17,832 bases of DNA from a virus (Duplodnaviria > Heunggongvirae > Uroviricota > Caudoviricetes), in the IMG/VR virus record IMGVR_UViG_2537561685_000014, positions 1 through 17,832 of that record; one strand, 5' to 3'. Position 1 is the first letter of the stretch; every line of letters starts with the position of its first letter. The notes beneath the pieces were generated by a model, which worked only from the letters and a program-made list of their open reading frames with translations, was not told where the DNA came from and ran no database searches. Shown one piece after another: positions 1,530 through 6,434 of this stretch. The translations under genes were made by a program, and so were the position numbers.

Positions 1530-1901
1530 ATGCGTATAGAGTTTGTTTTGCCTTACCCGCCGACGGTGAACACCTACTGGCGTCGTCGTGGCAGCACATA
1601 TTTTGTATCAAAAGCCGGTGAGCGTTATCGCCGGGATGTGGCACTTATTGTCCGCCAGCAGCGGCTGAAATTAAACCTGTCCGGAAGGCTGGCAATAAAA
1701 ATTACTGCAGAGCCGCCGGATAAGCGCCGTCGGGACCTGGACAATATCCTGAAAGCACCGCTGGATGCACTGACGCATGCGGGGCTTCTCATAGACGACG
1801 AGCAGTTTGATGAAATCAATATTGTGCGCGGTAAGCTCGTTCCTGGTGGTCGGCTGGGCGTGAAGATTTGCGAAATTAGAGGTGATAGTAATGGGGCGTG
1901 A
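1530..1901 (+). CDS. rusA: Holliday-junction resolvase RusA
   Basis: 123 aa; ATG preceded by AGAGG. Motifs LPYPPTVNTYWRR, PDKRRRDLDNILKAPLDALTHAGLLIDDEQ and GGRL match the RusA pattern. Typical position just upstream of Q. Confidence 0.85.
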   Translation: MRIEFVLPYPPTVNTYWRRRGSTYFVSKAGERYRRDVALIVRQQRLKLNLSGRLAIKITAEPPDKRRRDLDNILKAPLDALTHAGLLIDDEQFDEINIVRGKLVPGGRLGVKICEIRGDSNGA

Positions 1902-2244
1902 TATGTATGAGGTTTTAGACCGCTGGGGGGCATGGGCTGCAGCAGAAAATAGTGGTGTCGATTGGCAACCGATAGCAGCGGGCTTCAAGGGGCTTTTACC
2001 TCATGGTAAAAAGTCACGGATTCAGTGTGATGATGACGAAGGCATTATGATAGACAGTTGTGTGGCTCGGTTGAGAAGGTATAAACCAGAGGAATATGAG
2101 CTCATCATAGCCCACTTTGTTATTGGTATCTCATTACGCACTATTGCCAAAAAGAGAAGGTGTTCAGATGGCACGATTAGAAAGGAATTACAAACTGCAA
2201 TTGGTTTTGTAGAGGGTATTACGAGCGTTATTGCATGTAAATAA
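1891..2244 (+). CDS. Late-gene antiterminator Q, small QuuD/phage-82-like type
   Basis: ATG 1891 preceded by AGAGGTGA and overlapping the rusA stop (the ORF track starts at GTG 1882). Motifs LDRWGAWAA and IAAGFKGL plus Cys-rich centre are typical of small Q antiterminators of defective lambdoid prophages. Confidence 0.75.
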   Translation: MGRDMYEVLDRWGAWAAAENSGVDWQPIAAGFKGLLPHGKKSRIQCDDDEGIMIDSCVARLRRYKPEEYELIIAHFVIGISLRTIAKKRRCSDGTIRKELQTAIGFVEGITSVIACK

Positions 2245-2450: not shown

Positions 2451-3734
2451 CTATGACCGTGAAAAGTAGTGATGGTTCAGTTCTTTTGCAAAATAGTGCT
2501 TACGTTTAACCCAGATAAAACCATCAGCTTTAGAAATGATTGCAACATCTATGGGGCCTCCCACTGTTTCAGTATCATCGGAGACCTTGCGCTTGAAAGC
2601 GGTTAAATTTACTAATGATTCAGCCATATAAGCTAAATCTTGCTTGGGTAAAAACTCGATCATATTTACGACTTTGTCAACATAGTTTTCTCGGACAAAG
2701 CTATCAATACGCCCCTTGCAATCGGAAACAGTTCTGCGCACTACATCAACTATAGCATCCTTGGCTCCTTCGATATCTGAAGTGGGCACCAAATCTGTGA
2801 TTACTGAATCAATACCATCAAGTAAATCGCCGATAGAACGTTGATACTCAGCATGAAGATTTTGGATAAGATGTGAACTAGCTCCTTGCATGAAAGCAGA
2901 AACTTCATCCTCTTGCGCAAAGGGAGTCACGCCGCAATTAGGAGTGATGCAGCACTTGTCAGCATCTGTGGTTTTCCTTATTTTATCATTAAAGAAGCCA
3001 CAAACTTCATATGATAATACTTTAGGGTAATAGTCTTTATCGCCATAACCTGCAATCACAATCCCAGAGACGGAACCAATATCACTTTGCTTGCATATCA
3101 TAGCTGCCAATACATCACTAACTGCTTTTGTCAACTGTGGAGTTATGGATATTGAATCAAAGTCACTAAACTTTTGAGCAATGATGCGTTGGGTAATTGA
3201 TGAAGCATAGGTTTGGGCTGCTTGTTCATCATCCGGAGTAAAACCATCAAAGTAATTAATATCAGATAATTTTGTAAGGAGATCGTTGCAATAATTCGTG
3301 AGGTCTGTAACAAATTGATTCTTATCGAAGTTAACGAGATATGTTGGTTCGAGACCTTCAGAAAAAGCATCAACAAGCATGCTGAATACAATCTCGCTCA
3401 GGAAGTGATAAAGATGAGCCTCACGCATACCTGGTGTGATGATTGATTTAGCTGACTGTAGATAATTGAAGAAATCCTCAGCATATTCCTCCAAAGAGTC
3501 AAAACATTTAGAGCCTAAATCCTTTCTATAAGCCTTAATGATAAGCTCCCATGGAGCTGTGCAGAGATCACCAGTTCCATATACCATCAAACCTACAGGA
3601 TGATGTTTAGTGAGAGCGAAAAGCTTTTCAGCGCCATTATAGATTTTATGTTTGCCGCCTCCAGAAATCGTTACAGCTGAATCTGCGGCTAAAGCTACTG
3701 CGGTCTTGTTAAATACGGCTATTTCTGCTGTCAT
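2451..3734 (-). CDS. Proteasome-beta/HslV-like Ntn-hydrolase homolog with large extra regions (427 aa); function unknown
   Basis: Long minus-strand ORF, markedly AT-rich compared with its flanks. N-terminus MTAEIAVFNKTAVALAADSAVT fits the Thr1 ... Asp17 ... Lys33 layout of proteasome beta/HslV; VGLMVYGTGDL, IVIAGYGDKD and C-terminal TVGGPIDVAIISKADG resemble other conserved proteasome segments. Family assignment is by recalled motifs only. Confidence 0.6.
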   Translation of the reverse strand: MTAEIAVFNKTAVALAADSAVTISGGGKHKIYNGAEKLFALTKHHPVGLMVYGTGDLCTAPWELIIKAYRKDLGSKCFDSLEEYAEDFFNYLQSAKSIITPGMREAHLYHFLSEIVFSMLVDAFSEGLEPTYLVNFDKNQFVTDLTNYCNDLLTKLSDINYFDGFTPDDEQAAQTYASSITQRIIAQKFSDFDSISITPQLTKAVSDVLAAMICKQSDIGSVSGIVIAGYGDKDYYPKVLSYEVCGFFNDKIRKTTDADKCCITPNCGVTPFAQEDEVSAFMQGASSHLIQNLHAEYQRSIGDLLDGIDSVITDLVPTSDIEGAKDAIVDVVRRTVSDCKGRIDSFVRENYVDKVVNMIEFLPKQDLAYMAESLVNLTAFKRKVSDDTETVGGPIDVAIISKADGFIWVKRKHYFAKELNHHYFSRS

Positions 3735-3768
3735 TTTTTACATAGGGTTTATATGTTGTGTAATGAGA

Positions 3769-3797
3769 AAAATACAAAAAAATTAACGCGTACGCAA
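3769..3797 (-). promoter_or_regulatory. Candidate sigma70 promoter for the minus-strand gene
   Basis: On the minus strand: TTGCGT (3797..3792), 17-nt spacer, TATTTT (3774..3769), about 35 nt upstream of the ATG at 3734. Weak Shine-Dalgarno. Confidence 0.3.
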
Positions 3798-3842
3798 AAA
3801 TTCTTGTAATCTGTTAAGAGTGGTTACTTCGCCACACAGCTT

Positions 3843-3868
3843 AAACCCGCCGTCGAGCGGGTTTTTTT
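3843..3868 (+). terminator. Intrinsic terminator-like hairpin
   Basis: Stem AAACCCGC / GCGGGTTT with loop CGTCGA, then TTTTGT on the plus strand. No obvious plus-strand gene ends here; may insulate the island. Confidence 0.45.
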
Positions 3869-3990
3869 GTACCTGTAAACTTGGTGCAGTACGGTAAACA
3901 CGCTGGTGGTAGTGAATACTGACTTTTTATCTTGCTGGCTTTTTAGACAAGAGTTATTGGTATGTCATGTTAACCAGAAGGGAAAAAGAC

Positions 3991-4334: not shown

Positions 4335-5381
4335 ATGAAAAATACTGTAAAAATAAACAGTGTTGATTTAATCAACGCTGATTGCCTGCATTTTATTCAG
4401 TCCCTGCCTGATGATTCCATTGACCTGATTGTTACCGATCCGCCTTACTTCAAGGTGAAACCCAACGGTTGGGACAATCAGTGGAAAGGGGACGAAGATT
4501 ACCTTAAGTGGCTGGACCACTGTCTGGCCCAGTTCTGGCGGGTGTTGAAACCTGCCGGAAGCCTTTACCTGTTCTGTGGGCATCGCCTGGCATCTGATAT
4601 CGAAATCATGATGCGTGAACGCTTTAATGTGCTGAACCACATTATCTGGGCGAAGCCGTCCGGACGCTGGAACGGATGCAACAAGGAAAGCCTGCGGGCG
4701 TATTTCCCGGCAACAGAGCGCATTCTGTTTGCTGAACATTATCAGGGGCCATACCAGCCCAAAAATGACGGCTATGCGGCAAAGGGGCGCGAGCTTAAAC
4801 AGTGCGTCATGGCCCCGCTGATTTCTTACTTTCGTGATGCGCGAGAATCTCTGGGAATAACATCAAAACAGATAGCGGAAGCCACCGGAAAGAAAAACAT
4901 GGCGTCACACTGGTTTGGTGCCAGTCAGTGGCAGTTGCCGAACGAGGCTGATTACAAAAAACTTCAGGCGCTGTTCGCGCGTGTTGCAGCAGAAAAACAC
5001 CAGCGCGGGGAGCTGGAAAAGCCGCACCACCAGCTGGTCAGCACATACAGTGAACTGAACCGGCAATATGCCAGCCTGCAGGAGGAGTATAAATCCCTGC
5101 GGCGTTATTTTTCCGTATCAGCTGCTGTTCCGTATACGGATGTCTGGACGCACAAGCCTGTGCAGTATTATCCAGGCAAACATCCCTGTGAAAAACCGGC
5201 AGATATGTTGCGTCAGATAATTACTGCCAGCAGTCGCCCCGGTGATTTGGTCGCTGATTTTTTTATGGGGTCTGGCTCAACAATAAAAGCAGCACTTTCA
5301 CTGGGACGTCGCGCAATTGGCGTGGAACTGGAAGAAGAGAGATTTAATCAGACTGTAACTGAAATAAAAAATAATCGTTAA
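4335..5381 (+). CDS. DNA methyltransferase, beta-class (probably N6-adenine), orphan
   Basis: 348 aa. Catalytic motif IV LIVTDPPYF near the N-terminus and AdoMet motif I DFFMGSGST near the C-terminus; this IV-before-I order is typical of beta-class amino-methyltransferases. GC content is host-like, unlike the upstream AT-rich gene. Confidence 0.85.
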   Translation: MKNTVKINSVDLINADCLHFIQSLPDDSIDLIVTDPPYFKVKPNGWDNQWKGDEDYLKWLDHCLAQFWRVLKPAGSLYLFCGHRLASDIEIMMRERFNVLNHIIWAKPSGRWNGCNKESLRAYFPATERILFAEHYQGPYQPKNDGYAAKGRELKQCVMAPLISYFRDARESLGITSKQIAEATGKKNMASHWFGASQWQLPNEADYKKLQALFARVAAEKHQRGELEKPHHQLVSTYSELNRQYASLQEEYKSLRRYFSVSAAVPYTDVWTHKPVQYYPGKHPCEKPADMLRQIITASSRPGDLVADFFMGSGSTIKAALSLGRRAIGVELEEERFNQTVTEIKNNR

Positions 5382-5549
5382 ATATGCATTTAATAATTTC
5401 TTTATTTCATAAAAAATAAAAATATATACGTATATTTACAAATCTTGATATGATTTTCCATTGAAAAGAGAGCTGGCATTATTAATATCGGTACCCGGTT
5501 CCGAAGGGGATGTAAGCGCGGTCATTTTTATTTCTCTTGAGGAACCTGT

Positions 5550-5625
<76 letters not shown>

Positions 5626-5628
5626 TAT

Positions 5629-5703
<75 letters not shown>

Positions 5704-6061
5704 GAGAAACAAGCCTTATTGTATCGTTGCACTGGCGTATTTTTTATTGCGTGGGAGCAGGTTGTTTTTAAAAGGCATTCTGTTTTCTGGCTGTGATTTG
5801 AGGTCGGTTATAGCCACAGTGCTGTTTTTTACACCACTGGAATGGTGCATTATCGGTGGAAATTGAGCATTTCCTGACAGGGGCCGATGATGCACTATCC
5901 CGGTGTTGTAAATAACACTACAGAGGTGTTCCTCAGTGCGAGGGTGGTTTATGTAACTGTTTAGCGGGAAACCACAGTATTCATGGAGAGATGGATACTT
6001 CGGGGGGCACCCGACACCTCTGTTTTTCTACTACAAAAATGATTCATCTCTGGCATTTTTC

Positions 6062-6088
6062 AACCGCCGTTCCGGGCGGTTTTTTTTA
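6062..6088 (+). terminator. Intrinsic terminator
   Basis: Stem AACCGCC / GGCGGTT with loop GTTCCG, followed by a run of 8 T. Confidence 0.7.
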
Positions 6089-6410
6089 TTCTGAACTCAG
6101 AAAAGAATACACGGGCATTGATATTACCCGTGTGGCAAGGCCATGAAAGCCAATAATGAACTGAGCGCAAAAAAAGCGCGGCTGTCGGATTAACGCCGCG
6201 GGACAAAGTCCGTGAAGAAGAATAAGCATCAGTCTCCTCCAGGAGACGATTTGATATTACTAAGCTTTAAAAATGGTTTAAACCCCCGGATTAACCTTAA
6301 TTTCAGATAAGCTTTATTTCATTTTCTCCGAGCCACGTCAGGCGCATATCACATCAGATAACACCACATAAAAGGTATCTGCGGGTGCCTTTCACGGGGT
6401 GTTTTTTTAC

Positions 6411-6434
6411 GGGCCGCTGGTGGCCCTTTTTTAT
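6411..6434 (+). terminator. Intrinsic terminator, tR'-like, just upstream of the lysis genes
   Basis: Stem GGGCC / GGCCC with loop GCTGGT, then TTTTTTATTT; 17 nt before the first lysis-gene start codon. Position is analogous to lambda tR' ahead of S. Confidence 0.7.

Follow-up and report, generated by a model that had tools for sequence, protein, structure and literature searches.

A conserved structured RNA in the late region of a lambdoid prophage is probably a diverged member of the STnc100/PasD small RNA superfamily

STnc100 (Rfam RF02076) and PasD belong, with EcOnc27 and sRNA103, to a superfamily of small RNAs (sRNAs) of lambdoid prophages that are encoded in the late-region accessory ('moron') slot, with the antiterminator gene Q, the promoter pR' and the tRNA genes to one side and the lysis cassette to the other. 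The stx2-adjacent copy of STnc100 overlaps the Hfq-binding sRNA EcOnc27/sRNA103 of E. coli O157:H7, and sequence variants of the copy beside the Shiga toxin genes have been associated with clinical outcome (PMC12711010). In EDL933, copies of STnc100 are expressed, and both Hfq binding and Northern blot detection were reported for STnc100/EcOnc27 (PMC12711010, PMC5331693). PasD1 and PasD2 of enteropathogenic E. coli (EPEC) E2348/69 (Pearl Mizrahi et al. 2021) are abundant, depend on Hfq for stability and, according to RNA interactions mapped through ligation and sequencing (RIL-seq), pair with many mRNAs via a linker motif located just upstream of the terminator (PMC8550237); a shared ancestry of PasD and STnc100 was described in a preprint (Zhu, Shabalina & Storz, bioRxiv 10.64898/2026.05.13.724894). 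Here, we analysed a structured element at about position 5920-6089 on the plus strand of a 17,832-nucleotide (nt) stretch of DNA from the IMG/VR virus record IMGVR_UViG_2537561685_000014, the whole of which is referred to as the window and which is lambdoid prophage DNA with 100% identity to E. coli strain 120899 (NZ_CP025916.1). Judged by comparative sequence evidence, this element is a genuine, conserved, non-coding structured RNA. It is probably a diverged member of the STnc100/PasD superfamily, a degree of confidence that applies to the complete explanation given below, i.e. to family membership, role as Hfq-dependent sRNA and biogenesis taken jointly.

An initial annotation of this DNA had proposed an RNA with an outer stem (5921-5929/6014-6022) around one inner hairpin, ending in a T-tract and followed by a strong terminator. 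The outer stem is present and is actually 10 base pairs (bp) long, with ACAGAGGTGT at 5920-5929 being 100% complementary to ACACCTCTGT at 6014-6023. The inner hairpin was found exactly as described, as were the sequence TTTTTC right after the outer stem (6023-6028), the hexamer TAAATA at 5909-5914 and the terminator, whose stem is formed by 6062-6068 and 6075-6081 and followed by a T8 tract. Three more hairpins in the core (P1, P3 and P4) were absent from that annotation, and the RNA does not end in the T-tract that follows the outer stem, where a single-stranded linker begins; by analogy with STnc100 and PasD, its 3' end is most likely located at the strong terminator. The parts of the element are the following:
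5920-6089 (approximate), plus strand: whole element of ~170 nt, consisting of multi-branch core, linker and intrinsic terminator
5920-6023, plus strand: multi-branch core domain, from the minimum free energy (MFE) fold, RNAalifold and pair counts
5920-5929/6014-6023, plus strand: outer stem P0, a perfect 10-bp inverted repeat
5931-5934/5940-5943, plus strand: hairpin P1, CCUC-AGUGC-GAGG, with the loop AGUGC
5944-5950/5969-5975: hairpin P2, GTGGTTT/AAACCAC
5976-5984/5991-5999, plus strand: hairpin P3
6001-6004/6010-6013, plus strand: hairpin P4, CGGG-GGGCA-CCCG
6024-6061, plus strand: linker UUUUCUACUACAAAAAUGAUUCAUCUCUGGCAUUUUUCA, A/U-rich, ~40 nt, unpaired or weakly paired in the folds
6062-6089, plus strand: intrinsic terminator AACCGCC/GGCGGTT with a 6-nt loop and a U8 tail

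In the MFE fold of 5915-6030, the outer stem closes a multi-branch structure with four internal hairpins, and the energy of the fold, -45.8 kcal/mol (z-score -4.4), was matched by 0 of 200 shuffled sequences; the z-score for 5915-6090 is -3.9. Homologues of 5885-6095 with 70-100% identity were detected in 312 of 5426 complete E. coli genomes (about 6%), a few of them plasmid-borne and none of them covered by an RNA annotation, and an exact-pattern scan retrieved the family from 113 IMG/VR viral contigs. Strains with the element include, besides E. coli 120899, ETEC-2265 (identical copy), E. coli W (NC_017664, 1515360-1515566) and EAEC 042. From 20 homologues, aligned without reference to structure, RNAalifold derived a consensus of 31 pairs in six helices. 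In this alignment, 97.7% of the cells pair and six pairs are changed on both sides (25 cells), values that were reached in 0 of 500 shuffles, and pairing falls to 41-49% if the registers are shifted by 1-3 columns. A covariance model built only from the element's own family, termed R1, recovered 104 copies in viral contigs with scores of 31-199 bits; among 65 distinct sequences of these contigs, compensatory changes occur in 18 of the 31 pairs at 97.9% pairing, the underlying alignment being fitted to the model and thus biased towards the structure. The terminator helix (helix 6) is kept in both the homologue and the viral-contig sets (98-99% pairing), and P1 shows a UA-to-CG compensation within the family. 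The covariation analysis that the initial annotation had suggested as a check has hence been carried out on homologues, and the stems covary. No open reading frame (ORF) is conserved in strand or frame among 18 homologues, four of which lack any ORF of at least 40 amino acids (aa). The compensatory pairing together with the absence of a conserved ORF argues for a structured, non-coding RNA.

In a search of the whole window with Rfam at gathering threshold, only the two tRNAs were matched. A permissive search aligned the STnc100 model RF02076 over its full length (positions 1-206) to 5892-6091 of the plus strand with 19.9 bits and an E-value of 0.015 for a 221-nt query (range 0.015-0.054). The scores for this model form a graded series, from the window element (19.9 bits) via two related loci, L007 (26 bits) and L006 (35.5 bits), and the two PasD RNAs (PasD1, 37.7 bits; PasD2, 41.4 bits) to canonical STnc100 (48-104 bits); L006 and L007 were the best of ten family loci scanned, none of which reached 47 bits. 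In the reverse direction, R1 matched, each at its own annotated coordinates and strand, the STnc100-like copy of PhiR49_2 (L014; 37.3 bits, E-value 1e-6), STnc100 of phage 1717 (22.5 bits, E-value 0.002), PasD2 (E-value 0.03) and canonical STnc100 of Stx2 and Stx1 phages, the last with only 15-16 bits (E-values 0.05-0.08). A match was also obtained to an STnc100 of Salmonella diarizonae (34.8 bits, E-value 6e-5). All these E-values come from a short calibration and are rough.

The RF02076 alignment agrees in specific landmarks, namely the outer stem, the GUGCG-loop hairpin that comes first, the CGGGnGGCACCCG hairpin next to the 3' strand of P0 and the terminator. In all 20 representatives of the element's family, STnc100 and PasD, P0 is formed from differing sequences, such as CAGAGGUG/CACCUCUG, GAGACGU/ACGUCUC, GCAUGGUG/CACCAUGC, GUGUGGUG/CACCACAC and GCGGUG/CACCGC. 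This was determined by duplex checks on each sequence, which replaced the P0 pair count of 62% from the superfamily MAFFT alignment, an artefact of a shift of the outer stem by one base. The 5' hairpin CC(C)yC-xGUGCGx-GrGG, which in STnc100 comes right after the 5' strand of P0, corresponds to P1 at 5931-5943. P4 (CGGGGGGCACCCG, 6001-6013) has a single loop substitution compared to the invariant CGGGAGGCACCCG and is directly followed by the 3' strand of P0, and the linker is followed by the terminator at 6062-6081 plus U8, the total length expected of an STnc100 being about 170-206 nt. The element thus shares with STnc100 the order of outer stem, P1 with xGUGCGx loop, variable middle hairpins, CGGGAGGCACCCG-type hairpin abutting P0, linker and terminator, and in addition a -10-like TAAAxA in the same register. 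It differs from STnc100 in the sequence of the outer stem (CAGAGGUG/CACCUCUG versus GCAUGGUG/CACCAUGC), in the length of P1 (4 versus 5 bp), in the flanks of P4 (UUCGGG...CCCGAC versus ACCGGG...CCCGGC), in having a linker of its own, and in an 85-nt hairpin and a tRNA-Gly at fixed distance in place of the promoter region.

PasD1 and PasD2 are, like the window element, sub-threshold relatives of STnc100. They share with it the length of ~172 nt, a structured 5' domain, a single-stranded linker, a U-rich terminator and the slot between Q and holin, and the PasD seed occupies the linker portion immediately before the terminator, in the position of a nu1-complementary stretch of the window element (see below). 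As differences, PasD lacks the full P4 hairpin, GCGGGAGGCGCC running straight into the outer stem, follows a TerB-like gene and a DUF3927 gene rather than tRNAs, and possesses a -35, TTGACT. Its seed UGUGAG does not occur in the linker in the window, and BLAST of PasA (short and long forms), PasD1 and PasD2 against the window gave no meaningful match.

The genomic position is likewise shared with STnc100, both with regard to the strand relative to the late operon and to the slot, with Q and tRNAs on one side and lysis genes on the other. In the window, the order is Q, tRNAs, element and holin, with the element residing in a 750-nt stretch without annotated gene between tRNA-Gly and the lysis genes. 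PhiR49_2 carries Q, a methylase fragment, tRNAs, the STnc100-like RNA and holin in this order, Stx2 phage F004 carries Q, tRNAs, stx2AB and STnc100, and in Salmonella diarizonae a bona fide STnc100 is found ~110 nt after two tRNAs. The genes and other features around the element are:
before 1882, early part of the window: genes for a DUF968 protein and RusA, followed by Q
1882-2244, plus strand: antiterminator Q gene (Pfam PF06530; annotation of the identical E. coli 120899 locus by the Prokaryotic Genome Annotation Pipeline, PGAP)
2451-3734, opposite strand to Q: ORF of 427 aa
3768-3958, plus strand: Q-proximal block, located by BLAST of the Q-to-tRNA intergenic regions of L008 and L014; terminator at 3843-3864 plus T7 (terminator scan, fold)
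4335-5381: DNA methylase, preceded by a small ORF
5550-5625, plus strand: tRNA-Thr(UGU) (ARAGORN, Rfam)
5629-5703, plus strand: tRNA-Gly(UCC) (ARAGORN, Rfam)
from 6452 (holin start codon): two holins and endolysin
3' of the lysis genes: iss, then nu1/nohD (terminase small subunit, 9584-10129), then the terminase large subunit

The region between the tRNAs and the core domain is itself highly structured, and a candidate promoter precedes the tRNAs:
5461-5488, plus strand: sigma-70-like promoter TTGAAA-16-TAATAT from a promoter scan, putative promoter of a tRNA-plus-sRNA unit
5787-5792/5802-5807 and 5811-5814/5821-5824, plus strand: two small hairpins in the tRNA trailer, followed by a U6 run
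5828-5912, plus strand: long imperfect hairpin of 85 nt (inverted repeat; RNAalifold and pair counts, 18 homologues)
The long hairpin abuts the 5' side of the core, and its 3' arm takes in TAAATA. It comprises 33 pairs, of which 90-94% are paired and 12 show compensatory changes in the 18 homologues; the small hairpins are 87-91% paired in the same alignment, with compensatory changes in five pairs. Many of the pairs in the long hairpin are G-U on the plus strand and would be A-C mismatches on the other strand. Together with the compensation, this indicates that the hairpin functions as plus-strand RNA and, consequently, that transcription must at least sometimes start upstream of 5828. The whole trailer (5704-6092) folds with a z-score of -9.15, whereas the 360 nt that follow it give -1.86. 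The distance from the end of a tRNA (81 Gly, 4 Arg) to the P4 motif is 286-307 nt in 85 of 104 evaluable copies (82%), and a scan of the region between 5704 and 5929 revealed no consensus terminator on the plus strand. A TTGnnA-16-TAtTAT sequence is present at the same place, ~60 nt upstream of the tRNA cluster, in L001, L002, L005, L009, L010 and L018-L022. The folding of the trailer, the fixed tRNA distance, the lack of an intervening terminator and the conserved promoter before the tRNAs all point to a single transcription unit, consisting of the promoter at 5461-5488, tRNA-Thr, tRNA-Gly, the structured trailer and the terminator, from which the sRNA would be freed by processing around the long hairpin. 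We prefer this co-transcription with the tRNAs, which on the sequence evidence we consider slightly better than an even bet. In the lytic cycle, polymerase modified by Q and arriving from about 3800 would transcribe past the terminator of the element into the lysis genes.

Chromosomal precedents for such an arrangement are the trailer RNAs of E. coli tRNA operons, 3'ETS-leuZ and the RtT RNA of the tyrT operon. As in these cases, the element is encoded in the 3' trailer of a tRNA operon, directly 3' of the last tRNA and with no terminator in between, and a stable RNA is predicted to be released by processing of the tRNA precursor; there is no sequence or structural relationship to 3'ETS-leuZ or RtT, and the element is phage-borne. 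Some minor features of this region were recorded. The promoter at 5461-5488 and its counterparts in relatives are followed by a GGTTCC...GGAACC leader hairpin. The long hairpin may be an RNase III-type processing site and matches miRNA-precursor models in the permissive Rfam search. The sequence GTGTT-GTAAAT-AACAC at 5903-5918 forms a short palindrome around the -10-like hexamer, with compensation in relatives (GGTG...CACC); it could fold into a hairpin competing with the base of the long one. A sigma-54 promoter downstream of tRNA-Gly (GCACTGGCGT...TTGCG) was considered and rejected by eye, since its two elements are 3 nt too far apart and relatives lack the TTGC.

The linker of the element starts U-rich and forms an A/U-rich single strand, and the terminator has a U8 tail. 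This anatomy is consistent with an Hfq sRNA, and by analogy with PasD and EcOnc27 we infer that it is likely to be an Hfq-dependent, trans-acting sRNA. The RNA would be made in the lysogen, bind Hfq via the U tail and the U/A-rich linker, and pair in trans with mRNAs via the terminator-proximal nucleotides of its linker. No part of the family varies more than this linker, of which ~40 variants exist among the copies, and different variants would be expected to have different targets. Such variability on a conserved scaffold fits target diversification, and the conservation of the scaffold means that the domain itself has a conserved role. The linker was scanned against the plus strand of the window, and the best candidate target of this variant would be the nu1 terminase mRNA, either of the prophage itself or of a superinfecting lambda-like phage:
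9879-9894, plus strand: candidate target site UGAAGAAUGCCAGAGA in nu1/nohD, 16 bp to linker positions 6047-6062, one G-U
The match between UCUCUGGCAUUUUUCA (6047-6062) and this site is contiguous, and a second, G-U-rich block brings the duplex to -32.8 kcal/mol; the best duplexes of dinucleotide-shuffled linkers reached -23.7 ± 1.4 kcal/mol, with 0 of 85 attaining the observed value. Among 2000 shuffles, 3 produced a helix of at least 16 bp with at most one G-U. The nu1 site is also present in three further loci that have this linker, the match in L183 being perfect (16/16). Other linker variants, each searched against its own locus for targets, yielded nothing above chance. We regard nu1 as a lead, rather unlikely to prove the actual target. 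More doubtful still is a scenario in which the subfamily is an STnc100-type RNA that lost its own promoter, became fused to a tRNA operon via a processing hairpin and evolved the 16-bp nu1 match in its terminator-adjacent seed, in order to keep leaky packaging genes silent in the lysogen or to disable lambda-like phages that superinfect it.

Several findings weigh against the explanation developed so far. The score of 19.9 bits is far below the curated RF02076 threshold of 47 bits, and blastn with a word size of 7 revealed only 10-nt chance matches of PasD1 and PasD2 to 5900-6090; membership in the superfamily is therefore based on structure, motifs, intermediates and synteny. Conservation is highest in the structured domain with its loops, not in the linker, an uncommon pattern for a seed-driven sRNA that would allow the domain itself a function. 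With regard to nu1, 146 of 1000 shuffles reached the observed run length if unlimited G-U pairs were allowed, and this statistic does not support the match; support comes only from the duplex energy and from the count of helices with at most one G-U. Moreover, longer natural linkers reach similar duplex energies in the window by chance, L240 has the same nu1 site and another linker that does not pair, meaning that the complementarity is variant-specific, and the site lies deep within the coding region. Finally, co-transcription with the tRNAs is a deduction of ours, and TAAATA is, in the Rfam alignment, in exact register with TAAAAA upstream of STnc100 and PasD. The latter is also an argument for an independent sRNA gene with the same function, the transcript of which would start at ~5920-5922 from TAAATA, with the upstream hairpin being part of a tRNA-trailer transcript or a regulator of the promoter. 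The 5' end of PasD, as seen from RNA-seq coverage, at the equivalent G of GCAUGG agrees with such a start, and so do the TTGACT- or TTGCCT-like -35 sequences recognised by eye in STnc100 and PasD relatives and the clear TTGAAA-17-TAAATT of Klebsiella STnc100 at that place. In the window, however, there is no usable -35, the -10 lacks the final T and the promoter scan found no site; many relatives have TAAAAG, TTAACA or GAAAAC instead of the hexamer, and the would-be -35 and spacer change by compensatory pairs, i.e. as RNA. We keep a promoter of its own, perhaps a weak additional one, as a tentative possibility and retain processing from the tRNA transcript as our preferred reading.

The initial annotation had considered TAAATA as a -10 resembling that of lambda pR' and the element as a Q-dependent late leader, i.e. 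a 6S-like transcript starting at pR', carrying qut and pause elements and ending at tR'. Like lambda 6S RNA, the element would give rise to a short, terminated late-region transcript before the lysis genes, and its strong terminator would have to be read through by Q-modified polymerase. However, the element is not adjacent to Q, which is 3.7 kb upstream, tRNA genes are located between the two in every relative, and there is neither a sigma-70-like site between 5645 and 5920 in the promoter scan nor a recognisable -35 or qut arrangement, the would-be -35/-10 region evolving by compensatory pair changes as an RNA helix. The block directly after the Q stop codon in the compact relatives L008 and L014 maps to 3768-3958 and not to 5920; in the window, an inserted ORF on the opposite strand separates Q from this usual downstream block, and the element follows 2 kb further on, behind the methylase and the two tRNA genes. 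This block, with its own terminator, is the positional equivalent of pR'-tR', its promoter being presumed from position. In addition, the same RNA family occurs downstream of stx2B or DUF3927 genes in other phages and on plasmids. Taken together, the late-leader reading is very improbable. As far as can be judged from sequence comparison, the late promoter maps elsewhere, an outcome that the initial annotation had itself named as refuting its proposal, and its second suggestion of an unrelated small RNA is supported, with the difference that this RNA can be named as a putative STnc100/PasD relative. Unlikely, albeit less so, is a role as cis-acting structured element of the tRNA or late transcript, be it a processing or stability signal or a put RNA-like, polymerase- or protein-binding RNA tuning the read-through to the lysis genes. 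It would account for the stronger conservation of the domain and its loops (P1 AGUGC, P4 AGGCA) compared to the linker, for the strong folding confined to the trailer and for the position upstream of a terminator and the lysis cassette; yet the relatives PasD and EcOnc27 are discrete Hfq-bound RNAs pairing with many mRNAs in trans, plasmid copies persist beside a DMT transporter gene with no lysis genes nearby, and a phage with a Q antiterminator does not need an RNA-based antitermination device. The annotated records of vB_EcoS-683R6 (minus strand), strain Sx181-0-1 (plus strand) and PhiR49_2 show hypothetical coding sequences that overlap the homologues, and the window has a 51-aa ORF at 5991-6146. 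A small protein-coding gene was nevertheless rejected, with next to no probability left for it: the ORFs vary in strand, frame and extent among the 18 homologues, indels of non-multiples of three occur throughout, substitutions follow base-pair compensation and there is no Pfam match.

The class of RNA, its genomic position and its probable mechanism are already known; new are the covarying 85-nt 5' hairpin, the fixed link to a tRNA in 82% of the copies and, as a lead, the 16-bp complement between linker and nu1. Among the Hfq-bound accessory sRNAs of pathogenic E. coli, those of the STnc100/PasD type rank with the most abundant, and the result extends this medically relevant family and raises questions on its biogenesis and targets. 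The family is wider than Rfam-based annotation reveals, as the unannotated subfamily is present in ~6% of complete E. coli genomes and >100 viral contigs and is missed by genome annotation because of its scores under the Rfam threshold. The 5' hairpin and the tRNA link bear on how such RNAs are made, and the natural series of linker variants on one scaffold may be useful for studying how horizontally transferred sRNAs gain targets. If true, the nu1 complementarity would exemplify the action of an sRNA on the packaging genes of a phage.

Other features of the locus concern the surroundings of the lysis genes and of Q. Two tandem terminator-like hairpins, GGGUGCCUUUCACGGGGUGUUUUUUU and GGGCCGCUGGUGGCCC plus U6, are located at 6380-6433, at most 70 nt upstream of the holin start; given these hairpins, lysis-gene expression should depend strictly on antitermination, and alternatively they may mark the 3' end of a further small transcript. 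Just past the sRNA terminator, the minus strand carries a terminator-like hairpin with a T-rich tail (ACACGGGTAATATCAATGCCCGTGT, 6109-6133) that could end a convergent transcript. The 427-aa ORF has no Pfam match, and a bidirectional terminator of 12 bp borders it at 2247-2274.

The other sub-threshold Rfam matches reflect generic likeness to hairpins or terminators and were discarded, namely those of miRNA-precursor models over 5823-5919 and of anti-hemB, Hrs13, suhB/mmgR and RyhB over terminators. The pattern scan of genome contigs was diluted by chance matches in high-GC Actinobacteria, so that only enterobacterial loci were informative. In Kosakonia cowanii (L089, 3288-3493, minus strand), R1 scored 32.8 bits over 87 nt within an Rfam STnc560 locus; STnc560 is another Hfq-binding RNA, and the match may be driven by the terminator or hint at a wider relationship. 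Copies of the hairpin-plus-sRNA module persist on E. coli IncF-type plasmids (L006, 1245-2666; L025, 244-1194), where they adjoin a degenerate tRNA, lie ~20 nt upstream of a DMT-family transporter gene and are far from lysis genes. Four viral contigs (L147, L170, L195 and L232) contain two diverged copies of the element per phage, 770-1900 nt apart, and in the LT-IIb toxin phage SerU-LTIIb (L002) the whole module of tRNA, sRNA and holin is duplicated upstream of the toxin genes.

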